From Nitrospiraceae bacterium (GTDB lineage Bacteria > Nitrospirota > Thermodesulfovibrionia > Thermodesulfovibrionales > UBA6898), in assembly GCA_003153275.1 (NCBI GenBank), contig PLXX01000072.1:1661-52981 (forward strand): 51,321 nucleotides of DNA, read 5' to 3'. Numbering within the stretch: the first letter of the stretch is position 1; every line of letters starts with the position of its first letter. Shown piece after piece: positions 639 to 29,894 of the stretch. The notes beneath the pieces are model-generated. The model worked only from the letters and a program-made list of their open reading frames with translations, made no database searches and had not been told where the DNA came from. A program made the position numbers and the translations under genes.

Positions 639-731
639 TCATCGATCAGTACATTGACCAATTTTGGACATGCCGGCTTTTAAGTAAGAGCAATGGAGTC
701 AATTTTTTCTGGATATCAAAGCTCGCATGGT
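639..731. repeat. Left copy of a ~94-nt imperfect direct repeat. It is a dead duplicate of the upstream region and first 13 codons of the ydcF-like gene.
   Basis: Manual alignment to 29801-29894 gives 6 substitutions and one 1-nt T-run length difference. It carries the same ATG (693), but the shorter T-run makes it read MESIFSGYQSSHG-stop. Confidence 0.85.
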
Positions 732-978
732 TAACGTCCCGGCGCGAGAAAAACCCGTATCCTTGTAAAACCACCAAACCATGCTCGTCGAATTGCGGGA
801 GGTCTGACAGTGTGTGGTAGCGGCCTGCATGAGTATAGCTCGTCAGATATCCGAGAGAAGCGAGATCACGGAACAAGCTACGCCGCGAACGTCCTCCTGC
901 GGCTTTTGCAATCGATGCGAAGTCCATTGTCTGATTTCGCTGGAACAGCAGAGCAAGGTGTGCAGCCGCTTCATTCAT
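646..978 (-). pseudogene. Truncated winged-HTH protein fragment, possibly the N-terminus of a mobile-element or regulatory protein. It runs into the left repeat copy.
   Basis: The ORF begins MNEAAAHLALLFQRNQTMDFASIAKAAGGRSRRSLFRDLASLGYLTSYTHAGRYHTL, which is HTH-like. From ~735 downward the reading frame is simply the repeat sequence. The same C-terminal peptide ASFDIQKK appears in the antisense ORF at 29842-30138, so the 3' part is not native. Confidence 0.45.
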
Positions 979-1015
979 GCCCCACCTCCAATGGCAATAT
1001 TGGTACTATTTGTCT

Positions 1016-1354
1016 CTAACAGCCAAAGACAACTTTGAGGGCTGTTTTTACGGTGAACATTTGATCTGTCCCGATCATTCCGACACGCTCGACAAGGCGT
1101 TCCTCAGCTACAGAACGAACTTGGAAAAGATCTATCACGGATTTCTTAGCGAGGCCATTTTCATGTCCTGGGGTAAGAATAACCATCCAGGGCACCTCCT
1201 TGAATTTATCCTTGTAATCGGTAATTGGAGCTATGATCTTTAGTGGGAGTACGCCAACCGTGTCGTCATTAACGATTACGCAAGGACGAGTCTTTTTGAC
1301 TTCGGCTCCTATTGTCGGATCCAGATTAACTACCCATATTTCCCTCTGTCTCAT
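1016..1354 (-). CDS. mazF: Type II toxin, PemK/MazF-family endoribonuclease
   Basis: 112-aa ORF. REIWVVNLDPTIGAEVKKTRPCVIV and the following IAPIT segment fit the MazF/PemK pattern. The ATG overlaps the stop of the upstream antitoxin ORF (ATGA). Confidence 0.85.
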   Translation of the reverse strand: MRQREIWVVNLDPTIGAEVKKTRPCVIVNDDTVGVLPLKIIAPITDYKDKFKEVPWMVILTPGHENGLAKKSVIDLFQVRSVAEERLVERVGMIGTDQMFTVKTALKVVFGC

Positions 1355-1602
1355 TTGAAATCCTCCCCGTCCAAAGATTGAAGGGCAGTGAGGTCGGTGT
1401 TCTGCCGGTATTCATCAACCATAGAACGTGCAATTTTCTCAACTTTCTTTTTTTGCTGAGATTCCCTGTAGGCTTCAAATGCTTTAGCAATAAGCTCAGA
1501 CTGAGACAGTGAAAGTTCTGTGGCAAGGCTCTTGATTGCCCTGGAATAGCCGTGCGGCAATGAAATAGTTATACGGTCATGCTGCTTTGAAGCTGTCGTC
1601 AT
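1351..1602 (-). CDS. Ribbon-helix-helix (CopG/MazE-like) antitoxin
   Basis: I moved the start from the track's 1665 to the ATG at 1602, which is preceded by GGAAGGAG 7 nt upstream. ITISLPHGYSRAIKSLATELSLSQSELIAKAFEAY fits an RHH pattern. The ORF overlaps the toxin start. Confidence 0.7.
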   Translation of the reverse strand: MTTASKQHDRITISLPHGYSRAIKSLATELSLSQSELIAKAFEAYRESQQKKKVEKIARSMVDEYRQNTDLTALQSLDGEDFK

Positions 1603-1698
1603 AACAGTTCTCCTTCCTTGAATTTTCATTATGTCTATAATGACATACAATTGTACGGAATACAATATGTATTAGAATACGCGATAAGTTATGTCTGA

Positions 1699-1908
1699 GG
1701 TAAGATTGCAGGCGAGGATGGCATTATCGGTCCGCGTGCAGAGCAGTTCGAAAAGGGCGAACGGATTATTATTAACGACGGGCCGTTCAGGGATTTCTCA
1801 GGAGTGTTCAAGAGGGACCTCCCCGGAAGAGACAGGGTCGTCATCTTACTCAACGCACTGCATGGCAGCCTCGAACTCGACCGCGGGGCCCTTAGGAAAC
1901 AACGGTAA
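1699..1908 (+). pseudogene. 5'-truncated RfaH/NusG-family antiterminator gene (KOW domain only)
   Basis: This frame is not in the ORF track because it has no Met. It reads GKIAGEDGIIGPRAEQFEKGERIIINDGPFRDFSGVFKRDLPGRDRVVILLNALHGSLELDRGALRKQR-stop. It resembles the RfaH C-terminal KOW region (G-F-G-F ... LLLN pattern). A TGA at 1696-1698 lies immediately upstream and the NGN domain is absent. Confidence 0.6.
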
Positions 1909-2001
1909 TCAGTCCCTGAACAATACATGGTAAATGGCCCATGTTTACCTACCGCTTTCGATGAACTTTCTGTGTCCATTAATCAGCTTGTTGGGCCTGC
2001 T

Positions 2002-2030
2002 TTGCTATTTTAAAATGCATCTGCTATTAT
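2002..2030 (+). promoter_or_regulatory. Candidate sigma70-type promoter of the island operon
   Basis: TTGCTA (2002-2007), 17-nt spacer, TATTAT (2025-2030). It sits ~65 nt upstream of the ops-like element and ~110 nt upstream of the MarR-family gene. Confidence 0.4.
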
Positions 2031-2032
2031 AT

Positions 2033-2047
2033 GTTCATAGCATGAAC
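2033..2047. promoter_or_regulatory. Perfect inverted repeat GTTCAT-AGC-ATGAAC just downstream of the -10 box (candidate operator)
   Basis: 6-bp arms with a 3-nt spacer, read directly from the sequence. The position overlaps the predicted transcription start, and a MarR-family gene follows. Confidence 0.3.
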
Positions 2048-2095
2048 GCAGCACAAAATATGCAGCCTGCTTTGTAGTGGCGAGTGTCATGAAAC

Positions 2096-2107
2096 GGCGG
2101 TAGCCTG
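2096..2107 (+). promoter_or_regulatory. ops-like (operon polarity suppressor) element GGCGGTAGCCTG
   Basis: It matches the enterobacterial ops consensus GGCGGTAGnnTG at all 10 specified positions. It lies on the coding strand in the 5' leader of a ~27-kb co-directional glycan operon. Confidence 0.5.
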
Positions 2108-2139
2108 TCCGGGTGTGCAGCCCCTCCGCTTGCAAGAAC

Positions 2140-2466
2140 ATGAACGAATCCCAGTATAAAATCCTGCTTGAAATCTCGTACAAAGGGACGCTTTCTCAGC
2201 GCGACCTTGCCAAAAAGATCGGCCTCAGCCTTGGCAAGATAAACTATACAGTAAATGCCCTCCTCGAAAAAGGGTATATTAAGGCGAGCCGCTTCAAGAA
2301 CTCAAAGAACAAGATGGCCTATCGGTATATACTCACCCCCTCTGGGGTGTTCACAAAGATCACCCAGACCCATCTGTTCCTCGAGAGAAAGACCAGGGAA
2401 TACGAACAGCTTAAGGCAGAAATAGAGGCCCTCCGGATTGAAGCGGAGAAGCAAAAAACAACGTGA
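2140..2466 (+). CDS. MarR-family, EPS-associated transcriptional regulator
   Basis: MNESQYKILLEISYKGTLSQRDLAKKIGLSLGKINYTVNALLEKGYIKASRFKNSKNKMAYRYILTPSG is a wHTH followed by a C-terminal coiled coil. I chose the ATG at 2140 rather than the GTG at 2113. Confidence 0.8.
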   Translation: MNESQYKILLEISYKGTLSQRDLAKKIGLSLGKINYTVNALLEKGYIKASRFKNSKNKMAYRYILTPSGVFTKITQTHLFLERKTREYEQLKAEIEALRIEAEKQKTT

Positions 2467-2777
2467 TCCAGGCCAATGTTCTCGCCGCCATGACTCAAAA
2501 TGGGGATGCAATAAACCAGGTCTATAACGTAACTGCCGGAGAAAGGACGACACTGAATGAGTTGTTCGGCATGATCAGGGGGTATCTTTCTGGTTATGAC
2601 GACAGGATTAAATCGATCGAGCCCATGTACTGGCCTTTTAGAAAAGGGGAAGTATTGCATTCCCTGACGGATATCTCTAAAGCGAAAAGATTAATCGGAT
2701 ATGATCCAAAATACAACGTTAAAAAGGACATGGAAGAGACTGTAAAATGGTTTTTTCAAAACAGACAAATGAAGTGA
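2463..2777 (+). pseudogene. C-terminal third of an NAD-dependent UDP-sugar 4-epimerase (WbpP/TviC-like), 5'-truncated
   Basis: VIQANVLAA...QVYNVTAGERTTLNELF...FRKGEVLHSLTDISKAKRLIGYDPKY matches only the last ~100 residues of ~340-aa SDR epimerases. The Rossmann N-terminal part is missing. The fragment abuts the MarR-family gene stop. Confidence 0.7.
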
Positions 2778-2844
2778 TATAATCAATAACTGGGACAAAG
2801 AGCCACTTAACGCATCATAAAAACAACAGAGAGGAGTGATGACC

Positions 2845-3093
2845 ATGCTAACGGAATATATCGAAGAGGCACTCAAAAGAGCCCATTATGAAATGATCGA
2901 CGATGAGGAACCCTTTTACGCGGAGATTAAGGAACTTAAGGGTGCGTGGGCAACCGGCAAATCGCTGGAAGAGTGCCGAGGGAATCTCAAGGATGTTATC
3001 GAGGGATGGATACTGCTCAGTATAAAAAAAGAGATAAAAATCTCGAAGCTTGGTAAATTCGGAATAAGAGAAGTTCACGAGTCGGTCGCATAG
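2845..3093 (+). CDS. hicB: HicB-family antitoxin (UPF0150)
   Basis: MLTEYIEEALKRAHYEMIDDEEPFYAEIKELKGAWATGKSLEECRGNLKDVIEGWILL is the classic HicB N-domain. A GAGGAG RBS lies 8-9 nt upstream of the ATG at 2845. Confidence 0.8.
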   Translation: MLTEYIEEALKRAHYEMIDDEEPFYAEIKELKGAWATGKSLEECRGNLKDVIEGWILLSIKKEIKISKLGKFGIREVHESVA

Positions 3094-3096
3094 AAG

Positions 3097-3150
3097 ATGC
3101 CTAAATTATCTCCTGTTACACGTTCTGAACTTATATCGAGACTATGTTGA
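3097..3150 (+). pseudogene. hicA: hicA toxin stub (17 codons)
   Basis: MPKLSPVTRSELISRLC-stop is the typical HicA N-terminus (MPKL..V..REL...L), cut off after 17 residues. It starts 3 nt after the hicB stop. Confidence 0.55.
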
Positions 3151-3293
3151 TTATGTCCATTAGTGGACTAACGGGCCTACTGTCCTTCGGGCTTGGTGAT
3201 GCTACGCTTCATTACGTTGCCCATTATACAGGTAATAGTGATGGTGAAGGAGCACGAGAGGTTTCTAAAGGACAGGGCGTATCTGAATGCTAA
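3144..3293 (+). pseudogene. Possible internal fragment of a Wzx/MOP-family flippase
   Basis: A 49-aa ORF reads MLIMSISGLTGLLSFGLGDATLHYVAHYTGNSDGEG... It resembles the loop motif (..GLG.A..KYV..Y.G.ND..) near TM2 of polysaccharide flippases. It has no flippase context on either side. Confidence 0.25.
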
Positions 3294-3940
3294 ATGAATT
3301 GATTAAGACTACCGTCCGTAAATTGTGTGCCTTAGCCGGCATACAAATTGTGCCCTTGACTAAACATCAAAAAGAACTGATGGGAAATGATGCTAATCTA
3401 CGTTATCGTCATTTTTGTATTCAAGACGCAATAACAATGCAGAGAGGGCAAATAACCCTTAAAGAAGCTAGGTTTCTTGGCCAACTTGTAAGTAATTTGG
3501 AAACTAAAGGACCTATTATTGAAATCGGGACCTTGTTCGGGTGGTCTACACGAATTATCTGCCTGTTTATGGATAACGGCAGAGAATTAATAACGGTAGA
3601 TAATTATTCGTGGAATCCCTTTGGTTTGCCGCCAGACATGCATTTTGAGACGACTAGAACTGTTCTTAAAGATGAAATCTCATCAGGACAGCCTCAATTG
3701 ATGAAAATGAGTAACACTGAGTTCTATAATATTTATTCGGGCCTTTCACCTGCACTAATTTTTATCGACGCCGACCACGAATACGAAGCTGTTAAGATGG
3801 ACATCGAGGGAGCGAAGAAATTAGGAGCAAAAATCATCTGTGGTCATGATTATGACGAAAGAAGATGCCCTGGCGTTGTCAAGGCTGTAGATGAATATGG
3901 AGGTCCCAAAAGGCTCGTAGGCAGTTTGTGGGTACTTTGA
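3287..3940 (+). CDS. Class I SAM-dependent methyltransferase (Methyltransf_24/CmcI-like)
   Basis: PIIEIGTLFGWST (glycine-rich SAM loop), LIFIDADHEYEAV, GHDY...GVVKAVDEY. Confidence 0.7.
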   Translation: MLNELIKTTVRKLCALAGIQIVPLTKHQKELMGNDANLRYRHFCIQDAITMQRGQITLKEARFLGQLVSNLETKGPIIEIGTLFGWSTRIICLFMDNGRELITVDNYSWNPFGLPPDMHFETTRTVLKDEISSGQPQLMKMSNTEFYNIYSGLSPALIFIDADHEYEAVKMDIEGAKKLGAKIICGHDYDERRCPGVVKAVDEYGGPKRLVGSLWVL

Positions 3941-4060
3941 AGAACCATCTAATAGAATCCTTGGCTAGTATTGTAGGATATCTAGTCGATACCCCTAATG
4001 CGACGGGAGGCAGCCGGCAGTATGGCGAAAACCGTGGACAAGGTTAGAAAGTGAGAACAA

Positions 4061-4888
4061 TTGTCTGAAGAAATTTCACTGATAATCGAAGCCGGACGGA
4101 CGGAAAAACATTACTGGCTGGACCTGTGGCGGTATCGCGAGCTGTTTTACTTCCTGGCCTGGCGGGATATCCTTGTCCGTTATAAACAGACGGTAATAGG
4201 CATTGCATGGGCATTGATTCGGCCATTCCTTACGATGGTGGTTTTTACCGTGGTCTTTGGTAAGTTAGCGAAGCTGCCTTCCGAAGGTGTGCCTTATCCG
4301 ATCATGGTCTTTGCCGCGATGCTGCCCTGGCAGTTTTTTTCGAATGCCCTGTCGGAGGCGAGCAACAGTCTTGTCGGAAATGCTAACCTTATTTCGAAGG
4401 TCTACTTCCCGCGCCTGATCATTCCGGCCAGTTCCGTGATCACGAGCTTTGTGGATTTTCTTATATCCGGCGTAATCCTCGTCGGCCTCATGGCCTGGTA
4501 TCGGTTTGTGCCGGACTGGCGGATTATCACTTTGCCGCTTTTCATCGGAATCGCCTTTGCCGCAGCCATGGGTGCAGGTCTCTGGCTTACTGCCCTTAAC
4601 GTCAAATATCGTGATTTTCGTTACATAGTGCCTTTCATCGTCCAGTTCGGCCTTTATATCTCACCGGTCGGTTTTTCGAGCAGTATAGTGCCGAGCAGAT
4701 GGCGGTTGCTTTATTCGCTTAATCCCATGGTGGGAGTAATAGACGGCTTTCGCTGGGCGATCCTGGGCAGCGAGAGCAAAATCTATTTGCCCGGCTTCAT
4801 AATTTCGATGGTGATAGTGGCGGCTCTGCTCATTACCGGCATTATGTACTTCAGAAAAACCGAGAAGTCGTTTGCGGATGTCATATGA
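4061..4888 (+). CDS. wzm: ABC-2 type polysaccharide/O-antigen export permease
   Basis: LDLWRYRELFYFLAWRDILVRYKQTVIGIAWALIRPFL is the Wzm/TagG signature, and 6 hydrophobic segments are present. The start is TTG, which is needed to retain the conserved N-terminus. The stop overlaps the wzt start. Confidence 0.9.
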   Translation: MSEEISLIIEAGRTEKHYWLDLWRYRELFYFLAWRDILVRYKQTVIGIAWALIRPFLTMVVFTVVFGKLAKLPSEGVPYPIMVFAAMLPWQFFSNALSEASNSLVGNANLISKVYFPRLIIPASSVITSFVDFLISGVILVGLMAWYRFVPDWRIITLPLFIGIAFAAAMGAGLWLTALNVKYRDFRYIVPFIVQFGLYISPVGFSSSIVPSRWRLLYSLNPMVGVIDGFRWAILGSESKIYLPGFIISMVIVAALLITGIMYFRKTEKSFADVI

Positions 4889-6165
4889 GTGACACTGTAA
4901 TCAAAGTCGACAACCTCTCGAAAAAATATCTGATTAGTCATCAGCAGACAGAGCGTTATGTTGCCTTGCGAGATGTGATGGCCGATAAAGCTAAGAGCTT
5001 GGGGCGTAGAGTATTATCGCCTTTTCGCTCTTCGCTCTCTGCTCCTCGCTCCACGCTTGAAGACTTTTTCGCCCTCAAGGATGTTTCTTTCGAAATCAAA
5101 CGCGGTGACCGTGTTGGCATTATCGGTCGGAACGGCGCAGGGAAATCGACGCTTCTGAAGGTACTAAGCAGGATTACCGAGCCTACGACCGGAAGGATTG
5201 AGATCAAGGGCAGGGTAGCAAGCCTTCTGGAAGTGGGAACAGGGTTCCACCCTGAATTGACGGGAAGGGAAAATATCTTCCTCAACGGCGCTATTCTGGG
5301 GATGACGAAGGCTGAAATAAAGAGAAAATTTGACGAGATCGTTGACTTTGCAGAGATCGAGAAGTTCCTTGACACACCGGTAAAACGATATTCGTCGGGG
5401 ATGTACGTGAGGCTGGCGTTTGCCGTGGCCGCGCACCTGGAGCCGGAGATACTGATTGTGGATGAGGTGCTGGCGGTCGGCGATGCGCAGTTTCAAAAGA
5501 AGTGTTTGGGGAAGATGGAGGAGGTGGGGAGAGAAGGCAGGACGGTCTTGTTTGTGAGTCATAATATGGGGGCAATAATAACGCTATGCGAATACTCAAT
5601 ATTGCTGAACAGCGGATTTATAGAAGCAATCGGACTGACTAGCAACGTTGTAAGTAAGTATACTATTGGGGAACAACAGACCGAGAATACGTTCTTGCCC
5701 GAACGAGGAAAACGGACTGGAGACGGGCGGGCTTATATCGAAAAAGTGAAAGTATCACCAAATCCATTGCGAACTGCAGAACCTGTAGAATTTGAATTTA
5801 CAATTGACAGATCTCACGATGGTAGAGACATTCAGGTCGAGTTAGCGATAGCCGTGAAAACGGAGGCGGGCACACCCTTATTTCAAATCTACTCTCAGCA
5901 TATGGGGAGAACCTTCTTACTGCGACAAGGTAAAACGATAATTAATGCTAAGGTTGATAATTTTTATCTTGCCCCTGGCAATTATTGGGTTAACGTGTGG
6001 ATGGGGGCTGGTGACGAACCAGTAGACTGGATTCAAAATGCTATGCTTTTGCAGGTCGAGCCAGGTTTCCTGGTAGCTGGGCAATGTGCCGATTCAAGAG
6101 GTTATCCCGTCATCGTACCATCGTCTTGGGATAAAATTGATCTCAGCCCAGATTTCTTGGAGTAA
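4885..6165 (+). CDS. wzt: Polysaccharide/O-antigen ABC transporter ATP-binding protein with a C-terminal Wzt_C-type glycan-binding domain
   Basis: Walker A GRNGAGKSTLLK, signature YSSGMYVRLAFA, Walker B ILIVDEVLAVGD. An extra ~150-aa beta-rich C-terminal domain covers residues ~270-426. Confidence 0.9.
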   Translation: MSDTVIKVDNLSKKYLISHQQTERYVALRDVMADKAKSLGRRVLSPFRSSLSAPRSTLEDFFALKDVSFEIKRGDRVGIIGRNGAGKSTLLKVLSRITEPTTGRIEIKGRVASLLEVGTGFHPELTGRENIFLNGAILGMTKAEIKRKFDEIVDFAEIEKFLDTPVKRYSSGMYVRLAFAVAAHLEPEILIVDEVLAVGDAQFQKKCLGKMEEVGREGRTVLFVSHNMGAIITLCEYSILLNSGFIEAIGLTSNVVSKYTIGEQQTENTFLPERGKRTGDGRAYIEKVKVSPNPLRTAEPVEFEFTIDRSHDGRDIQVELAIAVKTEAGTPLFQIYSQHMGRTFLLRQGKTIINAKVDNFYLAPGNYWVNVWMGAGDEPVDWIQNAMLLQVEPGFLVAGQCADSRGYPVIVPSSWDKIDLSPDFLE

Positions 6166-6171
6166 GAGACA

Positions 6172-6822
6172 GTGAAGAATTACCGCCTTGAGGAATATAA
6201 TAAAGTAATTCAATTTGTTGATATCGTTAAACCTGAGAATATTTTGGATGTAGGTTGCGGTGAAGGGCGATACGCAATACCTCTTGCACAGAGGGGTTAT
6301 AAGGTTACAGGGGTTGATAAAAATTGCGCTCAGGCTGATCATCTTACCCAATACGGCGTGGCCGTACTTTCGGAAGGCGAGTTTGTTAACGAATCTGAAA
6401 GCTATGATCTGGTGCTTATGAGCCACATAATAGAGCACGTGTCCAGCTCAGAACTCATTGAGTTCATGGATTCTTATTTGAAGGTATTAAAGACTAACGG
6501 TTATCTTATAATTGCTACACCATTCCTTCATAGTGGGTTTTATGATGATTATGATCATGTTCATCCTTATACGCCAGCCGCTATATTATCACTATATTCT
6601 GACTACGTTCAGCTACAAGCAAAGCCGCGTTATCGTCTAGAGTTCAGGCAACTCTGGATACGCCGTTGGCCATACAGTATACCCTGCTACTTCGGCGAAA
6701 ATAGTGGGCTCAGCATTCTTAAAAGAAACATAAACAGAATGCTCAAAGTTCTTTTCATGTTTTCTGATAGATTAGTAGGGAGAAGAACTGGATGGGTCGG
6801 GTTATTCCAGAGAATAAGCTGA
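6172..6822 (+). CDS. Class I SAM-dependent methyltransferase (Methyltransf_11/23-like)
   Basis: ILDVGCGEGRYAIPLAQRGYKVTGVD motif I and DLVLMSHIIEHV. GTG start. Confidence 0.75.
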   Translation: MKNYRLEEYNKVIQFVDIVKPENILDVGCGEGRYAIPLAQRGYKVTGVDKNCAQADHLTQYGVAVLSEGEFVNESESYDLVLMSHIIEHVSSSELIEFMDSYLKVLKTNGYLIIATPFLHSGFYDDYDHVHPYTPAAILSLYSDYVQLQAKPRYRLEFRQLWIRRWPYSIPCYFGENSGLSILKRNINRMLKVLFMFSDRLVGRRTGWVGLFQRIS

Positions 6823-7315
6823 GAAGCACCCACAAGGTCTCTTTCCGAAAGCGAATATTACTTGCACTAGCGATCGACTTACAGTCGAGTAGCCCAATAG
6901 GTGTCGCTGACCGCTATAAAGACGATAAATGTTAGACGGAAGAGAACATACGTCACTGAAGCATTACGTATTGCGAGATTTGGCCAGAGTTCTTTCTATT
7001 ATTTTGCTATTGACCGCTCATATCGGTCAGACTTTAAAGCATCCAATAGGTGATGGCTTTAGGGAGCTGGAGCTGATGGTCCAAATGGTTAAAAGTAAGT
7101 ATTTTTTTTAAATGTGTTTTGCGAACTCATGTAAGGTTCCATCGTGTCGGAAAAGTTCGACGGACTTTTAGCATTAGATCCTGATATGGCTTGGCTAATG
7201 AGACAGCCTGCTCGAAAATGCATGGTGAAGTATTCTTCGATCGACATATCAACACGCTTGCGAGAATGAGTGAGTCAGAAGTAGGTCCTGAGCACTTTAC
7301 GGGAAGAACTGTTCG

Positions 7316-18949: not shown

Positions 18950-20119
18950 GTGGTATCAACCATGATCGCCTGTATCGGGGGTGAAAGTTTCTTGGGTTAC
19001 AATATTTCTGGGTATGCGTGGGCAGTCCCGGCGTTCGTTTCAGTTGTGGTTTTTTTTTCAAGGCGCGGCAGGATCAACTTGCCCTTCAAGATTTGGATAC
19101 CATGGATAATTGTTGTTGCAGGGTATCTCCTCTTTGCTGACGCGGAAAATGCCTTCCAACGGAGTGTTATGCTCCTATGCCCACTTTTTATTGGTATGAC
19201 TGTCTCTGGATTTAGTCTCGGCGAAGGCGAACTGTCGAATTTCAGACGCTTATACCATTACATGACTATCTCTCTATACATAATTGCTCTCCTTAAGACT
19301 GGTCTACTTGTCACTGGTGTATTACCGGAGGCTAGCAACCTCTCTGCCCCGGTTATGACTGGGGCATTACTCTGCACGCTTTTTGCAACAAATTATATGC
19401 TTGGACAGAAAAGTGCACTCGTCTGGTGGGGAACACTGGTGGGGATACCGGTTATTGCGCTCACTCGAATGGGTGTAATAGCTACCGCTCTTTCTCTACC
19501 TCTGACTGTTGCACCGATGAAGATCCTTAAACGGGTCTTTCTGGCGGCGATTATAATCGCCGTGGGATATGGGCTTTTCTATAGCGCACGCGTGCAAAAA
19601 CACATGTTCTATTCAGGCAGCGGTACCCTGCAAGAAGTACAATTACAAAATCCGAATTTGTCTACGAGCGGCCGGAGCAATATCTGGGAATATATGCAGC
19701 AAGAAATTGACAAACAACCGTTGTTCGGTCATGGAGCTAATGCGTCAGAACCTTTTGTCAGCAGACTCACCGGAGGTCTCACACATCCGCACAATGACTG
19801 GCTAAGGCTGCTCTTCGATTATGGATATTTTGGGGCGGTAATATTTGGAATAACGATGGCGCTGCAGGTTTTGCATCTTATCAGGAAAGGGACGCAGGCC
19901 TCAGGGGAAACCCGGATTCTTTTTTTTGCCGCTGCATCTTCTTTTATCTCATTCACACTCTTTATGTTTACAGACAATATTATCCTCTATGCAGCATTTT
20001 TCGGGAACTTTCAATTCACCATCTTGGGGCTCGCCTATGCGGCAAAAGCTACTAAGGGGATGGAAAGTTCTCCGGCGGAGCCCGTAAGACGGACTGTCCG
20101 ACTGAAAATAAGATGGTGA
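18950..20119 (+). CDS. O-antigen ligase family (Wzy_C domain) membrane protein. Ligase versus polymerase cannot be resolved from the sequence.
   Basis: Multi-TM protein with HPHNDWLRLLFDYGYFG and a large loop before it. Homology to the paralogue at 21145 continues upstream in frame to ~18863 (IDYFKAGAIIKQERSKIALPFLIW versus IDLKAIVAPKKKERIKLPLLLW). There is no ATG/GTG/TTG there, so the true start is uncertain and GTG 18950 is used. Confidence 0.8.
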   Translation: MVSTMIACIGGESFLGYNISGYAWAVPAFVSVVVFFSRRGRINLPFKIWIPWIIVVAGYLLFADAENAFQRSVMLLCPLFIGMTVSGFSLGEGELSNFRRLYHYMTISLYIIALLKTGLLVTGVLPEASNLSAPVMTGALLCTLFATNYMLGQKSALVWWGTLVGIPVIALTRMGVIATALSLPLTVAPMKILKRVFLAAIIIAVGYGLFYSARVQKHMFYSGSGTLQEVQLQNPNLSTSGRSNIWEYMQQEIDKQPLFGHGANASEPFVSRLTGGLTHPHNDWLRLLFDYGYFGAVIFGITMALQVLHLIRKGTQASGETRILFFAAASSFISFTLFMFTDNIILYAAFFGNFQFTILGLAYAAKATKGMESSPAEPVRRTVRLKIRW

Positions 20120-21144: not shown

Positions 21145-22278
21145 TTGCAGAAGATAGATTTGAAGGCGATCGTTGCGCCCAAGAAAAAGGAACGTATAAA
21201 ACTTCCACTTCTTCTTTGGTACATTTTTGTCTCAACCATTATCGTCTGCATCGGTGGCTCCAGTTTCCTGGGCTTTAATGTTACAGGTTTTGCGTGGGCA
21301 GTCCCTTTCTTTTTGGCAGTCATCATATTCTTAACCGAGCGGGGAAGGATGCGATTCCCTTTTATGATCTGGCTTCCCGGGATATGTGTGGTGGCAGGAT
21401 ATCTGATATTTGCAGAAGCTGAAAACGCCTTCCAGCGGAGCGTCATGCTCCTCTGCCCGCTTTTTATCGGTATCACCGCATCAAAATTCAAGATAAGCGA
21501 CAATGAACTGTCGGGTTTCAGGAAGTTATACCGGTATATGGTGATTTCCCTTTATGCGATCGTTATACTCAAGACGGGTCTGTTTGTCACGGGCGTATTA
21601 TCGGGGGGCAGGAATCTTGCGGCACCGGTTATGACTGGAGCGCTCCTTTGCGCGCTTTTTGCGACGAATTATATGTTTGGAGAAAAAAGAGATCTTGCCT
21701 GGTGGGGAGCGCTCTCAGCGATTCCGATTATAGCCCTTACGAGGATGGGGATGATAGCGACAGAACTTTCTCTGCCGCTTACCTTTGCGCCAATGAAGAT
21801 GCTCAAGCGAATTGTGTTGGCCTCCATGATTATTGCTGCCGGGTATGGGCTCTTCTATACTGAGCGCGTGCAGGAAAAGACCTTCTCTATTCCGGGAGCG
21901 GGACTCTCCAGGATGTCAGCAGGGATAATCTCAATTTTGCGACCAGCCCATAATGATTGGCTGCGACTGCTCTTCGACTATGGATATTTTGGGACAGTCA
22001 TTTTCGGGATCACGATGGTACTTCAAGTTTTTTATCTTATCAGGAAAGGGAAATAGACCTCAGGAGAAACGCGAATTCTTTTTTTCGCCGGCGCATCGTC
22101 GTTTATCGCGTTTACACTCTTTATGTTTACGGACAACATCATTCCTTACGCTGCATTTTTCGGAAACCTTCAGTTCACCCTCCTGGGCCTGGCATATGCG
22201 GCGCACGCGGCGTCGCTGAAGGAAGACCGGCACACTCTTTCCGGCAAACGCCCTTTCTATAAAAGAATCAGGTGGTAA
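21145..22278 (+). pseudogene. Decayed paralogue of the O-antigen ligase family gene at 18950
   Basis: Collinear with 18950-20119 but with three lesions. There is a local frameshift (TLQDVSRDNLNFATS is readable only in another frame). About 40 codons of the loop before HNDWLRLLFDYGYFG are deleted. An in-frame TAG at 22054-22056 replaces the paralogue's CAG. Homologous sequence continues in frame after the stop to 22278 (TSGETRILFFAGASSFIAFTLFMFTDNI...). Confidence 0.8.
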
Positions 22279-22299
22279 TTTCAGAGGAGAATAAGGCCA

Positions 22300-23052: not shown

Positions 23053-23076
23053 CTGCTGAGATTAGGAACGTTTAAT

Positions 23077-23934
23077 ATGTTTTGGTTCCTAGTCGCAAAA
23101 CTATACTCATCAATATACGGATTTTTTATTGGAAAGCTCAACATTAGTTTGAGAGGTTTGGGATATATCCTGCGTAAATTAAACAGGGACCACATCATAG
23201 AAGTTGATGGGAAGAAGCTTTTTTTGAACCATAAAGTTGCAAGTTGCTATGAGAGACTTATCAATGGAGTTTATAATGAGCCTGAAACGCATCTGTTTCT
23301 TAAGGCGCTGATTGACAAGATCGATTCTTCGGTGACGTTCGTTGATGTCGGAGCTAATGTGGGAGAGATGATCGTAGATATCGCGAGATATGACAAAGTG
23401 GAGCATGTGGTCGGTTTTGAACCCCATCCGGAGTGTGCGGCAGCGTGCAGAAAGTCGATAAAACTTAATAGGTTTGAAAATGTCATTCTCATCCAAAAAG
23501 TTTTAAGTGATTCCAGAAAATATGTATCCTTCGAATTTGATTCGGTAAGTCCCAACGCTTCAAAGATCACTGAAAAGAAAGACTCGATGATCGAAGCTTC
23601 CACTCTGGACGATGAACTCGGAGTTTTTCATGGCAATTGCATTATCCTTATCGATGTTGAGGGTGCAGAATTGAAAGTGGTTAAGGGGGGAAAATCATTC
23701 ATTCAAAAAAGACGCCCACTGATTGTTTTTGAATTCAATCAGGTAACAAAGCAGCATTTCCGTATTGATGAAATGAAAGATGAATTGGGTAAGGACTATC
23801 GCATTTATCGTCTTCGGAGGGACGACGGCAGATTAGATGACAAGATTAATGATGCATGGAATTGTGTGGCTGTTCACATATCATCACCATTTTTTGGGGC
23901 GTGCTCGGGGCTCATGCATGGATCAACTGCATGA
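23077..23934 (+). CDS. FkbM-family methyltransferase
   Basis: FVDVGANVGEMIVDIA, VVGFEPHPECAAACRKSIKLNRF, ILIDVEGAELKVVKGG. Confidence 0.85.
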   Translation: MFWFLVAKLYSSIYGFFIGKLNISLRGLGYILRKLNRDHIIEVDGKKLFLNHKVASCYERLINGVYNEPETHLFLKALIDKIDSSVTFVDVGANVGEMIVDIARYDKVEHVVGFEPHPECAAACRKSIKLNRFENVILIQKVLSDSRKYVSFEFDSVSPNASKITEKKDSMIEASTLDDELGVFHGNCIILIDVEGAELKVVKGGKSFIQKRRPLIVFEFNQVTKQHFRIDEMKDELGKDYRIYRLRRDDGRLDDKINDAWNCVAVHISSPFFGACSGLMHGSTA

Positions 23935-23965
23935 ATATTGATCAAGCAAAAAACTGGACTGGGTA

Positions 23966-25069
23966 ATGGCCGTGAAGAGGCTGCTTGTATTCGGTTCTTC
24001 CCATAAGATGGGGCTTACGGGGCAGTTGACCGATTTTATGTGTTCGTGTCTTGACGCCGGAGTGCTCCTGGATGACTTTCTGTGTATCAGTGGTGAGAGA
24101 GAGCAGTTCCCGGGCTTATTCGGACGGCTCGATGCACGCGGGGTAAAAAATGTCATGATAGAAGGGTTGGACGATCACGGCGACTTTTTTCGGCTGGTCA
24201 GGGAATTCGACGCTCATGTTCGGCGGTTCGTTCCCAGCGTCGTGCATGCCCAGACCAACTGGCAACTGGCTATTGCCGCTGTTGTTAAGTATCTCTTCGG
24301 GCGGCGCTATGCAATTCTCTATACCGTGCACGGATACAGGCACAATTATAAGTTCCGTTCCTTCATGGCCCGCTACCTCATGGGCATTTTCCTATTTTTT
24401 TTTGCTGATAAGGTCATTACGCCTTCTTCATTTCTGAAGAAGAAGTTCCGTTTTGTGGAAGACAAAGCCGAGGTCATTTATCTCGGCGTTGAAAATGATT
24501 TGTGGAAAGAATACAGTCCGCCGGAATTTGCCGGAACAAAAAGGCTTATCTTTCCCGGCGAATTCAGGCAGGGCAAGAATCAGGATACACTGATCAGGAC
24601 AGTCAAGTCTTACATGGACAGGACCGGTGATGACGATGTCGAACTCTATCTGCCGGGAGATGGGGAAAAACTCGAAGACTGCAAGTCACTCTGCAGGCAG
24701 CTGGGCATTGAGGCCAAAGTCTACTTCCCCGGGTTCATCGATAGGGCAGAAATGCTGCGCCTGTATATGCTCTGTCAGTATGCAGTTATCCCGTCCAATG
24801 TCGAGACCTTCGGCCTCTGTATTACAGAACCTTACATGCTGGGGAGAGTCGTCATCACGCGCCACGTGGGTGTTGCTGACGATCTTATAGCCGAGGGAAA
24901 GAGCGGCTTTTTCTTCGACAATGAAAAGGACCTCCCTGAAGTTCTGGAACATCTTTTTTCCAATACGGAGAAATGCATTCGTGTTTCGAAGTATGCCTAT
25001 GAAAACCGGGGCGTGCTGTCATGGGGACAAATCTGCAATCGCTATCTCAAAACCATAGAATCACTGTGA
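23966..25069 (+). CDS. Family 4 glycosyltransferase
   Basis: PGEFRQGKNQDTLI, VIPSNVETFGLCITEPYMLGRVVITRHVGVADDLIAEGKSGFFF. Confidence 0.8.
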   Translation: MAVKRLLVFGSSHKMGLTGQLTDFMCSCLDAGVLLDDFLCISGEREQFPGLFGRLDARGVKNVMIEGLDDHGDFFRLVREFDAHVRRFVPSVVHAQTNWQLAIAAVVKYLFGRRYAILYTVHGYRHNYKFRSFMARYLMGIFLFFFADKVITPSSFLKKKFRFVEDKAEVIYLGVENDLWKEYSPPEFAGTKRLIFPGEFRQGKNQDTLIRTVKSYMDRTGDDDVELYLPGDGEKLEDCKSLCRQLGIEAKVYFPGFIDRAEMLRLYMLCQYAVIPSNVETFGLCITEPYMLGRVVITRHVGVADDLIAEGKSGFFFDNEKDLPEVLEHLFSNTEKCIRVSKYAYENRGVLSWGQICNRYLKTIESL

Positions 25070-25085
25070 GCCGTTAGTAAGACGC

Positions 25086-26276
25086 ATGAAAGTCCTCCTT
25101 GTCCATAACTTCTACCGATCATCTGCCCCCTCGGGCGAGGACTCGGTTTATAAGAACGAGAAGGAACTTTTGATCGGCGGCGGGGTCGAGGTCATCTCTT
25201 ATGAACGGTTCAACGACAATATATCGAGCAGGTCGATGGCTGCCTTCAGCGCGGTCTGGTCAAACAAAACGTACAGAGAAGTTTCGGAGCTCATCGAAAA
25301 GGAAAAACCCGACATCGCCCACTTTCATAATATCTGGTATCTCATCTCACCCTCTGCATATTATGCCTGCAAAGAAGCCGGTGTTGCTGTTGTGCAGACA
25401 TTGCACAACTTCAGGATGTTCTGTGCAAACGGTTTGTTGATGCGTGATGGGCGTGTCTGTGAGGACTGTCTAGGGAGGGCCCCCTGGCGGGCTGCCGCCT
25501 ACGGCTGTTACCGCAGCTCCCGGCTTTACTCGCTGCCGGTTGTCGCTTCGGAGATCATCCATCGGGCAAAAAGGACATGGGTGGATGCCGTCGACGCGTA
25601 TGTGGCGCTGACGGAATTCGGAAAACGGAAATTCGTTGAATGCGGATTGCCGGCAGAAAAAATATTTATTAAGCCCAACTTTCTTTCCGACCCGCCCGCC
25701 CCGAACTATGCGGCGGCTGACTATGCCATCTACATGGGAAGATTGTCTGAAGAAAAGGGGCTGGATGTCCTGGTCGATGCGCTCGCGAGTGATGATAAAG
25801 GCGTGGCGTCATCCCCGCTGAAGGTCAAGATTGTGGGTGAGGGACCCCTGCGGGCGCATCTCGAAGGCAAGGCGTGGGACAAGGGCCTTTCGAATATCGA
25901 GTTTCTGGGCAGAAAAGATTTCAGCGAATGTCTTGATCTCCTTTCCCACGCTAGCTTCACGATCGTGCCGTCCGTCTGCTATGAAAATTTCCCGATGGCT
26001 ATCCGGGAGGCCTTTGCCTGCGGCAAGCCTGTTGTCGGGTCAAATCTCGGGGCTGTTGCGTCGATAATCAGGAACCGCGAAACAGGTCTGCTCTTTCAAC
26101 CCGGAAATCCTGAAGATCTCGCCTCAAAGATCACATGGATGGCCGGAAATAAGGACGCCTGCATTCAAATGGGGAGGAACGCGCGGGCCGAGTTCGAAAG
26201 CAAATATACGGCTGACCGCAACTTCGGGATGTTGATGGGGATTTATCAAAAAACTATTGACCGATACAGAAGATAG
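25086..26276 (+). CDS. Family 4 glycosyltransferase
   Basis: MKVLLVHNFYRSSAPSGEDSV..., MGRLSEEKGLDVLVDAL, ENFPMAIREAFACGKPVVGSNLGAVASIIRNRETGLLF. Confidence 0.85.
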   Translation: MKVLLVHNFYRSSAPSGEDSVYKNEKELLIGGGVEVISYERFNDNISSRSMAAFSAVWSNKTYREVSELIEKEKPDIAHFHNIWYLISPSAYYACKEAGVAVVQTLHNFRMFCANGLLMRDGRVCEDCLGRAPWRAAAYGCYRSSRLYSLPVVASEIIHRAKRTWVDAVDAYVALTEFGKRKFVECGLPAEKIFIKPNFLSDPPAPNYAAADYAIYMGRLSEEKGLDVLVDALASDDKGVASSPLKVKIVGEGPLRAHLEGKAWDKGLSNIEFLGRKDFSECLDLLSHASFTIVPSVCYENFPMAIREAFACGKPVVGSNLGAVASIIRNRETGLLFQPGNPEDLASKITWMAGNKDACIQMGRNARAEFESKYTADRNFGMLMGIYQKTIDRYRR

Positions 26277-26277
26277 G

Positions 26278-27048
26278 ATGAGCGGAGAAGAGGTAATACT
26301 GGGCTATCGTGTCTCGGTAAAATCTAAAACAGACTGCGTTTCTGAAATCACCGGATGGTTAAAAGACGGCAAAAAAAATAAATATTTTGTCTGCGCCAAC
26401 CCTCACTCTCTTGAAGTTGCCCGGCAAGACGGTCTATTCCGCAACGCAATCAAGGCAGCTGACCTTATCGTGCCCGACGGAATAGGGATTGTGATCGCCT
26501 CCAGGATACTGGGTGGGAATATCAGACGGAGGGTAACCGGCAGTGATATCTTCCTGGGATTGAGCGAAAAGTTGAACGATGAAAAAAAATACACTTATTT
26601 CTTCCTCGGCTCAACAAAAGAAAATCTCCAGAAGATAAGAAATAAGATGGGGACAGATTTTCCGGGCATTAAGGTTGCAGGCACATATTCTCCGCCTTTC
26701 AAAACGGATTTCAGTGAAGAAGATAATCGACTTATGGTAGAGGCTGTCAGCCGTTCTCATCCCGATGTGCTCTGGGTCGGGCTTACTGCCCCCAAGCAGG
26801 AAAAGTGGATATATCAAAACAGAGGCAGACTGGATGTGAAATTCATAGGAGCAATCGGGGCCGTTTTTGATTTTTATACCGGCAATGTTAAAAGGTCGCA
26901 TCCTTTTTTTCAAAAAATAGGGCTTGAATGGCTGCCACGCCTGCTCAGTGAGCCGCGTCGTCTCTGGAGGCGCAACTTTATCTCGAACCCATCTTTTGTG
27001 ATCAGGGTGATATCAAGCAGGATTGCAGGGAAAAAAAAGAGTAGATGA
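26278..27048 (+). CDS. WecB/TagA/CpsF-family (GT26) glycosyltransferase
   Basis: ANPHSLEVARQD...ADLIVPDGIGIVIASRILG...VTGSDIF...LWVGLTAPKQEKW. I used the ATG at 26278, one base after the preceding gene's stop, rather than the TTG at 26257. Confidence 0.85.
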   Translation: MSGEEVILGYRVSVKSKTDCVSEITGWLKDGKKNKYFVCANPHSLEVARQDGLFRNAIKAADLIVPDGIGIVIASRILGGNIRRRVTGSDIFLGLSEKLNDEKKYTYFFLGSTKENLQKIRNKMGTDFPGIKVAGTYSPPFKTDFSEEDNRLMVEAVSRSHPDVLWVGLTAPKQEKWIYQNRGRLDVKFIGAIGAVFDFYTGNVKRSHPFFQKIGLEWLPRLLSEPRRLWRRNFISNPSFVIRVISSRIAGKKKSR

Positions 27049-28175
27049 AAAGTCTTTTCTTGAAGCTGATCGGTCCGGCACCGATCAAAGAGCCGGTGCA
27101 TGTCACAAGAGACGCCCTCTCGGAGATCAGGAAACTCGCCGAAAGGCGGGGTCTGTTAATGCTATTGCACAAACGCCTGACCGAGAACATTGCTGTTATA
27201 GAACCGAAGGAAGAGGTGGAGAGGTTCATCGAGGAAACGAGGCCGCTTCGGTACGTGACAATAGCCCGGTCAATAAGACAGGAAAACGTCGGAAAGGAAA
27301 TCTTGCGGCTCCTCGGCCGTGCAGGAATCCCTGCCGTTGTTTTAAAAGGGAACTCTATTGCGCGTAATCTCTATGGTGACCCATATTGCCGGTCGTCGTC
27401 TGATATCGATCTTCTTATAAGAAGATCTGATGTGATCCCTGCTGATGCCGCCCTCCGCGGCATCGGGTGTCTCAGGGACGATCCACTCCCTCTTATGTTC
27501 TGGCTCAACAGGGTCCATCATGCGGTCTACGTTTATCCGGATACACGCGACCTGATCGAGATCCACTGGGATTTCGGCATACCCTCTTATTTCAGGCTTG
27601 CTTCCGACGATATTTGGGCCGAGGTGGTTTTTGACGCATCGGGAAATCCGGGGTTTTCGATGGAAATGGATGTCATCCAACTGCTCATCCATCATCATAT
27701 GCACGCCTTCAGGGAACTGAAGATCCTTGTTGACATTCTCTGGGCTTTGCATAAATATGATAGTAGGATGGACTGGAACGCTTTTGCAGGCCGTCTCAGG
27801 AAGCTCGGACTTCTTAAGACCGCTATGATCACATTGGCCCAGATAAACAGTGTCTGGAAAGACATCGGGGGTGAGATGGATTGTATCAAAACACTGGGGC
27901 AGGCATTCAGATATATGAGATGCGGCCTGCCGGGGTATTTACTGTCTTATTTCAGAATGGAGATAGAGAGAGAGTACTGTTTCCAATCCAACGGGGACAA
28001 ATTTATGTCCAGATTTGCCCTGGACGGCGCGGCAACGGTATGTCTGTCGTTCCTGAAGTCATTCTTCCCCATGCCTGACGATATAAAGGCGCTTTACAGA
28101 GATAGAAGGGGTTGGGCCCTGCCGTTCAATTACTCCCGGTTTATAACCTGGCGGTTGACGGAGTGGAGAAAGTGA
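27045..28175 (+). CDS. Uncharacterised nucleotidyltransferase-family protein (NTP_transf_5-like)
   Basis: IPAVVLKGNSIARNLYGDPYCRSSSDIDLLIRRSD and IEIHWDF fit the PF14907-type pattern as I recall it. ATGA overlap with the upstream gene. Confidence 0.6.
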   Translation: MKSLFLKLIGPAPIKEPVHVTRDALSEIRKLAERRGLLMLLHKRLTENIAVIEPKEEVERFIEETRPLRYVTIARSIRQENVGKEILRLLGRAGIPAVVLKGNSIARNLYGDPYCRSSSDIDLLIRRSDVIPADAALRGIGCLRDDPLPLMFWLNRVHHAVYVYPDTRDLIEIHWDFGIPSYFRLASDDIWAEVVFDASGNPGFSMEMDVIQLLIHHHMHAFRELKILVDILWALHKYDSRMDWNAFAGRLRKLGLLKTAMITLAQINSVWKDIGGEMDCIKTLGQAFRYMRCGLPGYLLSYFRMEIEREYCFQSNGDKFMSRFALDGAATVCLSFLKSFFPMPDDIKALYRDRRGWALPFNYSRFITWRLTEWRK

Positions 28176-28179
28176 GATC

Positions 28180-29619
28180 ATGACTATTAGATTGATCTAT
28201 TATTTCTTCTCCTACTTCATCGTTGCAGTCGGCCTGGCTTTGGTCTTTGTCCCTCTGATGCGGCCGCTAGCCTTTAAATTGGGGGCGGCAGATATAGGGA
28301 CCGGACGGCGGGTGCACAATGGCATTATTCCGAGACTCGGGGGAGTAGGCATTTTTCTGGCCTTTGTCATCCCCATGATCTTCAGGCTCACGAGAGGCAG
28401 CGGGGACAGTTTCAATTACAATATGTCCGGCGTCCTTCTGGCCTCAGTGATTGTAGTTCTGATCGGGGCCTACGACGACATAAAGGGTGCAAGTGTATCA
28501 AACAAACTGATTGCCGAAATTATTGCTGCGGGAGTAATTTATTGGTGGGGAATCCGTATCACCGTAATCAGCAATCCCTTTGGCAATCCCTTTATCCTGG
28601 GCTGGTTGAGCCTGCCTGTGACCGTACTTTGGATTGTCATCATCACAAATGCGGTTAATTTGGTCGACGGCCTTGACGGGCTTGCAGCCGGAAGCGGCAT
28701 ATTGATATCCGCGACCTTCTTCCTGCTTTCAGGCTCAGATTTAGGCCTTCAAATGACCTATGTAATCCTCGCTGGAAGCCTGGTGGGGTTTCTAAAATAT
28801 AATTTCCCGCCTGCCTCGATCTTTATGGGCGACTCTGGAAGCCTCTTCCTCGGTTTCATCCTTGCCTCGACCTCTATACTTTCTTCTCGTAAGGCGACGG
28901 CCCTGGCTACAATGATGGTCCCTATCATTGCCTTCATCTTTCCGCTCATGGATATGGCTTACGCCGTCTTGAGGCGGTATCACCGAGGAATTTCGCTCGG
29001 CAAGGCCGACAGGGAGCACATACACCATAAACTTCTCGAAATGGGGTTAAGTAAGAAAAAGGTTCTGTTACTCATGTACGCTATGAATGCCGGTGTTATG
29101 TTATGGATTTTATTACTCGTCAAGAGGCAGTTGAATATCGACTTCTGGGGACTCGTTCTGGTCGTCCTGCTTTCCATCCTCGGGCTACGGTTTCTTGGCT
29201 ACATCGAATTTCTCCAGCTTGTCAAGGATGGACTCAGAAAATTCAGGGGCGCAAAGAAGAGAAGATATGATGATTATGTCTTGAGCAGTTTCAGCCTCAA
29301 TGCTTCCAAAAGCACCGAGTTCCAAGATTTCGAACAGCATCTGACGCTTCTTTTTGAAGAATATAATTTTCATTCCGTCAAGATCATTCTCAACGACCCC
29401 TCTTTCAGAAGCCCTTATTTCATATATAACGATGGAAAAGGCTCCGGAAACTCGATCAATCTCTCTTTTCCGATCGTCTACGGGAACGAATGTCTTGGTG
29501 AAATTCAGATCAGCAAGATGATGGATGAGAATCGGCTTATGTGCACTTCGGAGCTGATACTGGCTCTGTCCGAGGAGGTAGGCAGATTCGTTCAAAAGAC
29601 AGCTGGGGAGAGCAAATAA
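28180..29619 (+). CDS. MraY/WecA-family polyprenyl-phosphate HexNAc-1-phosphate transferase with a ~125-aa C-terminal soluble extension
   Basis: NAVNLVDGLDGLAAG, FMGDSGSLFLGF and HIHHKLL are present. The TM core ends near residue ~350. Residues ~355-479 are non-membrane (…FEEYNFHSVKIILNDPSFRSPYFIYNDGKG…GEIQISKMMDENRL…). Confidence 0.85.
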   Translation: MTIRLIYYFFSYFIVAVGLALVFVPLMRPLAFKLGAADIGTGRRVHNGIIPRLGGVGIFLAFVIPMIFRLTRGSGDSFNYNMSGVLLASVIVVLIGAYDDIKGASVSNKLIAEIIAAGVIYWWGIRITVISNPFGNPFILGWLSLPVTVLWIVIITNAVNLVDGLDGLAAGSGILISATFFLLSGSDLGLQMTYVILAGSLVGFLKYNFPPASIFMGDSGSLFLGFILASTSILSSRKATALATMMVPIIAFIFPLMDMAYAVLRRYHRGISLGKADREHIHHKLLEMGLSKKKVLLLMYAMNAGVMLWILLLVKRQLNIDFWGLVLVVLLSILGLRFLGYIEFLQLVKDGLRKFRGAKKRRYDDYVLSSFSLNASKSTEFQDFEQHLTLLFEEYNFHSVKIILNDPSFRSPYFIYNDGKGSGNSINLSFPIVYGNECLGEIQISKMMDENRLMCTSELILALSEEVGRFVQKTAGESK

Positions 29620-29800
29620 CAAAACCTTGCTTTGATTATCAGGGATGGGTGGTGAATCGTCCTGTCCGCTGCCCGGGAAATGCCGCTGACTTGGCAAACG
29701 TCCTAAACCTGCAGGAGTAACCCCTGCCGACCGTCAGGCGAATGCATAAATCATCATGCGAATGAGGAGGCTGTCCAGCGATAAGGACCTAGTGATCAGT

Positions 29801-29894
29801 TCATCGATCAGTCCATCGATCAATTTTGCACGTGCCGGCTTTTAAGTAAGAGCAATGGAATCAATTTTTTTCTGGATATCAAAGCTCGCATGGT
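29801..29894. repeat. Right copy of the ~94-nt direct repeat. It contains the functional start of the ydcF-like gene.
   Basis: See the left copy (639-731). It includes the ATG at 29855 and codons 1-13 (MESIFFWISKLAW). Confidence 0.85.

Follow-up and report, generated by a model that had tools for sequence, protein, structure and literature searches.

A broken copy of the 5′ end of a ydcF-like gene as a probable relic of glycan cassette exchange in a Nitrospiraceae bacterium

Overview of the locus

The window analysed here, a stretch of 51,321 nt from a Nitrospiraceae bacterium (contig PLXX01000072.1 of assembly GCA_003153275.1, positions 1,661-52,981 of the forward strand), carries a glycan-assembly cassette and two direct copies of the 5′ end of a ydcF-like (YdcF/DUF218) gene, one on each side of it. 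The right copy belongs to the intact gene. The left copy is a non-functional ydcF-like stub at the far edge of a replaceable cassette, probably a scar of general recombination (homologous and illegitimate) and not an attachment site. The locus as a whole is a glycan cassette open to replacement, with illegitimate joins at several points, and the repeat, most likely a recombination relic, is one among several. At least three such junctions were found (at 734/735, at about 2463, and at about 29696), together with one integration point of an insertion sequence (IS), at 607. The coordinates of all features are collected in Table 1.

The two copies of the ydcF 5′ end

By global alignment, positions 639-731 and 29801-29894 differ by six substitutions and by one 1-nt difference in the length of a T run (92.6% identity), which reproduces exactly the counts given in the original prediction made for this DNA. 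The best local match is slightly longer (632-734 against 29794-29897, 91.3% identity over 104 columns with eight substitutions and one indel, blastn E = 9e-36), and the longest exact run common to the two copies is 29 nt. The same pair was picked up as direct repeats in a repeat scan of the window. In blastn and tblastx comparisons it was the sole similarity, at the level of DNA or translated sequence, between window positions 1-3400 and the rest of the window, and no further remnant of ydcF or gmd was found in this left zone.

Looser homology continues further to the left, as had also been predicted for some 30 nt. The motif GGnGGCTGTC is present at 606-615 and at 29766-29775, and an alignment with L001 and L011, which belong to the four closest loci with the same right flank (L001, L002, L011, and L012), demonstrated that these two relatives carry a longer version of the looser stretch, bridging both copies. 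Between this motif and the repeat core the copies differ in the number of 12-nt units, and for this reason their pairwise alignment looks weak there.

In the right copy the ATG at 29855 is followed by MESIFFWISKLAW. From its ATG at 693 the left copy reads MESIFSGYQSSHG and then a stop codon, because of the shorter T run. These reading frames agree with the earlier view that the right copy holds the real start and the left copy a frameshifted one. The YdcF-like protein has 1863 homologues with a conserved N-terminus, and in relatives of 79-90% identity this N-terminus is kept as protein, with synonymous changes in the DNA (MESLFFWASKLAW and similar); the ATG at 29855 is therefore the true start.

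How much distinction has accumulated between the copies? The left stretch 606-734 is 82-84% identical to the ydcF upstream region of L001 and L011. The two copies are separated from each other by eight differences and one indel, and each of them from L001 and L011 by 9-12 differences. Since the substitutions and the indel fall within only 104 nt and the number of 12-nt units differs as well, the duplication must be old or allelic rather than fresh. The divergence of the copies (0.08) lies below the synonymous distance (dS) of the lineages (0.19-0.25), and this fits both a closely related donor and duplication in situ with later decay.

Junctions at the borders of the cassette

The right end of the stub, at 734/735, is joined tail-to-tail to a convergent, truncated gene of the winged helix-turn-helix (wHTH) type. 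The longer homologues of this gene are mostly 210-237 aa in length, and all of them align to query residues 1-82 only; one relative is fused to a PF21804 transposase. The family matched no Pfam or NCBIfam model. In a search for a donor by means of the fragment, the closest protein over most of its length was 68% identical, and one shorter match reached 76-79% over about 50 residues.

The other limit of the left copy has a different nature. An IS607-family element ends at 607 in GG, so the left limit of the copy (GG followed by TGGCTGTC...) is the insertion point of this element in the ydcF upstream region. The IS607-family element accounts for where the stub is cut on its left but leaves the duplication itself unexplained. 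The original prediction had only a truncated wHTH open reading frame (ORF) next to the left copy and no integrase or transposase at all. The truncation of the wHTH gene is real and leaves 82 codons. The word "only" has to be dropped with the IS adjoining the other side, and the absence of a transposase has to be given up too: the window ORF 57-548 is the C-terminus of the TnpB-like protein of an IS607-family element, whose TnpA gene lies just outside the window and whose right end meets the left copy at 607.

On the right side, what is left of a pglF-like gene (29697-29748) follows the WecA-like gene and marks the cut of an older cassette. Homology with the relatives is lost to the left of about 29697. 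The junction of cargo and flank is thus placed at about 29696/29697, inside the pglF-like gene and 70-100 nt to the left of the right copy, and the earlier description of the repeats as bracketing the island is imprecise. Everything between the copies had also been ascribed to glycan assembly, toxin-antitoxin modules and gene debris. Domain scans with Pfam and NCBIfam, which took in the longer, non-nested ORFs of 646-29619, bear out this content but not its extension to the right copy, since homology of the flank begins at about 29697.

In the four closest loci the 3′ end of the pglF-like gene, ydcF, gmd, and fcl correspond to those of the window, with a DNA identity of 90-92% from about 29722 rightward. 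In close relatives the pglF-like gene is intact, and the set of genes upstream of it is unrelated to ours (WecB-like, GT4, Bac_transf, ATP-grasp, HAD, DegT, and PglF-like); its homology to the cassette of the window, here called cassette B, is restricted to distant DegT and NTP_transf_5 similarity. The same ydcF-gmd-fcl flank with different, unrelated genes upstream supports exchange of cassettes, as observed for the right flank. In relatives with YdcF identity of at most 84% the gene lies in unrelated neighbourhoods without gmd. The suggestion that related genomes might hold an empty site or different cargo was borne out in its second part: all four loci carry other cargo, and no empty site was present in the contigs recovered. 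In the same way, of the proposed insertion or cassette exchange that duplicated its target, the exchange is upheld by the other cargo of the relatives, while duplication of a target or attachment site finds no support, given the 9% divergence of the copies, the left limit set by the IS, and the gene fusion on the right.

Possible course of events

If the left copy is a relic of cassette exchange, then one may ask by which route it could have been left behind. The incoming DNA with cassette B would have been fixed after the split from the L001/L011-type lineages. By the first route, homology-facilitated illegitimate recombination (HFIR), a crossover in the ydcF-gmd arm would have been accompanied by illegitimate joining of the opposite DNA end at codon 13 of ydcF. 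HFIR is an established route giving exactly one homologous and one illegitimate junction (PMC3240628). By the second route, a tandem intermediate would have formed, and a deletion would then have fused ydcF codon 13 to the wHTH gene. The IS607-family element would have been inserted later, 85 nt upstream of the ATG of the stub.

Several observations weigh against this reconstruction. No recombination breakpoint was detected in ydcF or gmd against L001 and L011 (sliding identity; dS 0.14-0.30 throughout). Over about 100 nt the two copies group weakly together and not with different relatives, a grouping that neither requires nor excludes a foreign donor. Neither a donor nor an empty site turned up in the databases searched, nor did a relative whose gene at the left junction is intact. 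The DNA to the left of the stub's IS copy was not recovered from the two contigs that extend the window leftward (L014, which is ENA ERZ27254241 k141_26294 of 65.9 kb, and L015, which starts inside the IS). Searching metagenome contigs for the exact pattern of the repeat core gave 0 matches, and in a scan of GTDB genomes anchored on ilvD the best relatives were 80% identical (Thermodesulfovibrionales and Nitrospiraceae metagenome-assembled genomes), with synteny gone to the right of ilvD. Given the lack of a donor, an empty site or an intact left-junction relative, we infer the order of events, and the choice between HFIR and deletion, from the end product.

Alternative explanations

Among the alternatives, the one that survives best, although we hold it to be unlikely, is a single insertion that duplicated a target of about 200 nt in situ, from the last 50 nt of pglF to codon 13 of ydcF, through, for example, the filling-in of a long staggered break or a template switch, with later divergence of the copies. 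It would derive both junctions (734/735 and 29696/29697) from one event. The copies do resemble each other slightly more than either resembles L001 or L011, and their divergence fits an event that postdates the separation from the L001-type lineages. However, duplication in situ predicts ...CATCATSCGAATGA and the 3′ end of the pglF-like gene to the left of the stub, where the IS cuts the copy at 607. A target duplication of this length is not a known product of any element present here, and IS607 makes none (PMC6188088). The other unrelated gene fragments in the border zone point to several events and not to a single one.

An assembly artefact, with the left copy put in its place by a chimeric join, has very little probability. 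The sequence is metagenome-assembled, and contig k141_26294 switches between IS copies just to the left of the window, so that chimeric joins may occur at this locus. This contig is 100% identical first to IS copy 1 with its neighbours (I42, cytochrome c, and tnpA) and then to the IS copy of the island, the change occurring within the IS, and the TnpB-like ORF of the contig is broken into pieces of 113 and 467 aa. The other assembly has pycA, pycB, rpsO, and pnp after IS copy 1 (L111 compared). To judge from these sequences, the ilvD-I42 left flank in L014 may have come from a join between two IS copies, or else from a genuine rearrangement mediated by the IS. At the repeat itself an artefact is unlikely on three grounds: two separately deposited assemblies (ERZ19978263 c_000000040015 and ERZ27254241 k141_26294) hold both junctions at 99.99-100% identity; the longest exact run between the copies is far under k = 141; and a switch induced by the repeat would presumably run on into the body of ydcF and not into a truncated wHTH gene.

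The 12-nt array upstream of ydcF

The short reiterations noticed earlier in both copies are a GATC-rich 12-nt tandem array, located by Tandem Repeats Finder at 620-654 and 29794-29822. The 12-nt period as such spans 617-662 and 29778-29826, with a counterpart at 9868-9927 of L001. There are five units in L001 and L011 (CATTGATCAGTA, AATCGATAAGTA, CATTAATCAGTA, ...), four in the left copy, and about 3.5 in the right one, and the array is not present in relatives of at most 84% identity. With at most one mismatch allowed, the motif ATCGATCAGT occurs three times in the left copy and twice in the right, and four other single matches are scattered in the 51 kb. The idea that the array is part of the right end of the IS and holds binding sites of TnpA was rejected: three IS copies stop at AACGG, and their flanks differ. 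The CATTGATC motif near tnpA sits outside the left end of the IS.

Could the array and a promoter have been copied as a regulatory module to control the left end of the cassette? The array is kept, with a variable number of units, in both copies and in close relatives, and its motif, apart from the scattered single matches, is confined to these two places of the window. Such a functional duplication is nevertheless highly improbable. The left copy faces a convergent truncated gene and toxin-antitoxin genes on the minus strand, and the first plus-strand gene is 1.4 kb away. In a scan with consensus sequences, neither copy showed a promoter-like site in the orientation of the ydcF start, and the sole promoter-like match, at 29777-29750, lies on the opposite strand, upstream of the core of the right copy. 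The stub also includes 13 useless, frameshifted codons. Operator sites and methylation-sensitive sites are both possible functions of the array.

The IS607-family element at the left limit

The leftward contigs L014 and L015 encode a TnpA of 196 aa and then an ORF of 620 aa that ends at window position 548. TnpA matches the NCBIfam model of the IS607 transposase (NF033518, E = 3.6e-54, 183 bits against a cutoff of 110) and has a PF00239 Resolvase domain at residues 51-189. The whole element is about 2.6 kb long, with an unusually long TnpB-like ORF, and covers window 1-607, L015 10807-13000, and L014 10748-13170. At least three copies exist in different genomic places (the window, L111, and L112/L113). 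Their right ends are near-identical up to ...TTTAAGGAACGG (window 607) and unrelated beyond. The left end begins with GGGTTAAC, the right end is ...AACGG, and on either side the sequences next to the three copies are unrelated. The window holds neither a further copy nor a fragment of the IS, an arrangement other than that of a composite transposon.

IS607-family insertion sequences with TnpB have been described (PMC6188088; PMC4058570), and the hallmarks of the family are GG termini, insertion at GG, and no target duplication (PMC6188088). The element studied here has a serine-recombinase TnpA with an N-terminal DNA-binding domain and a match at equivalog level, tnpA and a tnpB-like gene in tandem, GG at both termini, insertion at GG and at several sites, no inverted repeats, and no target-site duplication. 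It differs from the family in its TnpB-like protein, which is long (570-620 aa), is without a Pfam match, and has only a weak match to the RNA-guided TnpB model NF040570 over the RuvC region, residues 398-471 (E = 5e-6, 26 bits against a cutoff of 100). A weak match to TIGR01766 was seen too, and no PDB sequence matched. This protein family has at least 419 homologues at E ≤ 1e-10, and the best 120 listed are 344-601 aa in length; some relatives were named "IS605 OrfB" by JGI. Closer relatives sought in JGI metagenomes were only 30-46% identical. The last 160 nt or so of the IS (447-607), which overlap the stop of the TnpB-like ORF, are 93-96% conserved among the copies, and the proteins are 82-93% identical.

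It is conceivable, with a very low probability, that the TnpB-like protein is RNA-guided and takes its guide from the adjacent positions 608-627 (TGGCTGTCAATTGATCAGTA; TGGCTGTCAATTGATCAG), that is, from the ydcF upstream region, and so acts at the border of the cassette. The putative guide matches the ydcF upstream alleles of related strains at 19/20 positions and the live copy of the cell at 14/20. If this were true, the element would cleave alleles that lack the IS, be they on incoming DNA or on a sister chromosome, exactly at the border of the glycan cassette and spare the resident gene, and such cutting could bias or drive recombination at the boundary. In a milder variant of this improbable reading, the GATC-rich 12-nt array of variable unit number would be a switchable operator for ydcF and the GDP-fucose genes.

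The serine recombinase gene close to the left copy, together with direct repeats some 29 kb apart and the lower-GC cargo and toxin-antitoxin modules between them, might also suggest a genomic island integrated by a site-specific recombinase, with the repeats as attL and attR, yet this is scarcely credible: the recombinase is the TnpA of a self-contained 2.6-kb IS with its own GG-bounded ends, which is found elsewhere without the island; the scanned ORFs of 646-29619 have no integrase, recombinase or transposase domain; the right-hand end of the cargo, at about 29696, does not coincide with the start of the repeat at 29766-29794; two truncated genes have been fused at one end of the left repeat, and the IS sets its other limit; and the copies are only 91% identical, not near-identical as repeats at both boundaries of the cargo would be. 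An island of a large serine recombinase was rejected likewise, the Resolvase-domain gene being the 196-aa IS607 TnpA.

Gene content of the cassette and of the right flank

Cassette B is of the ABC-transporter type. It encodes Wzm (4061-4888), Wzt (4885-6165), a WecG-like protein (26257-27048), and, last, a WecA-like initiating transferase (28180-29619), besides about nine glycosyltransferases, six methyltransferases, an aminotransferase, a deacetylase, and Wzy_C-like proteins. Its overall GC content of 0.446, with a value of 0.33 at 12-14 kb, is lower than that of the flank (0.50). The two Wzy_C-like paralogues (18950-20119 and 21145-22262) match along a stretch of 690 nt at about 70% DNA identity and along one of 254 nt at 80%. 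The second of them is split into overlapping ORFs of 303 and 101 aa and is probably frameshifted. In the border zone, the start of the epimerase fragment 2463-2777 overlaps the end of the MarR-type ORF. A weak GDP_Man_Dehyd match had made this fragment a candidate remnant of gmd; it was rejected as such, being TviC-like and unrelated to the gmd of the window.

Table 1. Features of the window, in order of position.
Feature	Position	Strand	Details
TnpB-like ORF, 3′ part (C-terminal 163 codons)	1-548 (window ORF 57-548)	+	tnpA just left of the window
Right end of the IS, candidate omega-RNA scaffold	447-607	+	element stops with ...TTTAAGGAACGG at 607; several hairpins in the fold
Left copy, dead ydcF-like stub	608-734	+	85 nt of upstream region, four 12-nt units, ATG 693, 13 codons frameshifted by the shorter T run
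Truncated wHTH-type gene, first 82 codons	735-978	-	listed ORF 646-978 extends beyond the gene into antisense sequence of the ydcF stub
Toxin-antitoxin pair: MazF/PemK toxin (1016-1354) and upstream small ORF (1351-1665)	1016-1665	-	PF02452 E = 5.5e-24; weak RHH_1 E = 0.043
MarR-type winged-helix regulator ORF	2113-2466	+	HTH_24 E = 7.8e-14; MarR E = 1.3e-9
Debris: C-terminal ~100 residues of a TviC/WbpP-like NAD-dependent sugar epimerase	2463-2777	+	NF011728 E = 1.7e-23, profile positions 241-340 of 348 only
HicB-like (UPF0150) antitoxin-type ORF	2836-3093	+	PF21748 E = 1.4e-27
Glycan cassette B, ABC-transporter type	3287-29619	+	Pfam and NCBIfam scans
Relic of pglF-like (Polysacc_synt_2) gene, last ~50 nt with TAA stop	29697-29748	+	aligns to the 3′ end of the intact pglF-like gene in L001, L011, L012
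Right copy, live 5′ region of the ydcF-like gene	29766-29897	+	12-nt units, Shine-Dalgarno AAGAG, ATG 29855, first 13-14 codons
Intact YdcF/DUF218 (ElyC-like) gene, 271 aa	29855-30670	+	PF02698 E = 6.6e-25; NF007794 ElyC E = 7e-23, under its cutoff
gmd, fcl, manC, manB (GDP-fucose/mannose supply)	30894-35924	+	conserved right flank; 92-98% DNA identity to L001, L011

In several database entries (P0001, P0003, and P0023) the ydcF-like gene is called 14-39 codons short (window 29855-29896); the conserved MESIFFW... start makes the longer ORF the correct one. P0023 was at first sight an N-terminally short ydcF, and this is a difference of gene calling only. The gmd and fcl proteins further to the right are 95-97% identical to those of close relatives. 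A second polysaccharide export set lies at 41905-47473, 6 kb to the right of manB, and consists of a Wza-like protein, a Wzc-like tyrosine kinase, and a Wzy_C-TPR protein. Taken as a whole, the window forms a single large envelope-glycan region. At 48891-49370 there are four tandem 120-nt repeats (69-83% identical) within the gene of a Big_2 and NHL/beta-propeller repeat protein. No tRNA genes were found in the window, and no Rfam family matched it.

Comparison with known systems and significance

Replaceable O-antigen and capsule cassettes lie between conserved flanks, with remnants and IS elements at their junctions, as in the rfb locus of E. coli (galF-gnd), the K loci of Klebsiella, and the cps locus of pneumococci (dexB-aliA). 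The locus described here resembles them in its conserved flank of sugar-nucleotide genes and ydcF, unrelated central genes, lower GC content, and truncated genes and IS at the borders. In contrast to these systems, its host is an uncultured bacterium of Nitrospirota/Thermodesulfovibrionales type, its boundary gene is DUF218/ElyC-like, and conservation was seen for the right flank only.

HFIR is reportedly an explanation of relics retained after displacement of a cassette. As in HFIR, one junction lies in homologous ydcF-gmd DNA, the other is a fusion of unrelated truncated sequences, and a relic of the displaced resident stands beside the incoming DNA. The 29-kb cargo, however, is far larger than in experimental cases of HFIR, and the mechanism is read here from the end product alone. 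With islands of integrases the locus shares a direct repeat that holds a gene end and cargo between the copies; unlike them, it has no island-borne integrase among the scanned ORFs, the ends of its repeat lie off the ends of the cargo, the copies have diverged by 9%, and the 5′ and not the 3′ end of the gene is repeated.

The phenomenon itself, swappable surface-glycan cassettes with remnants and IS elements, is known; the instance in an uncultured genome of Nitrospirota type, with a DUF218 gene at the border, is new. No new mechanism of integration is revealed. For annotation, ORFs 693-734 and 646-978 should be treated as junction artefacts and window ORF 57-548 as part of an IS, and the ilvD-side flank in one public contig may join across IS copies. 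For the biology of the group, the finding shows that surface-glycan loci in uncultured Nitrospirota diversify as in well-studied pathogens, by swaps of whole cassettes beside conserved sugar-nucleotide genes, and that stubs of genes, debris, toxin-antitoxin modules, and IS elements remain at the borders after such swaps.

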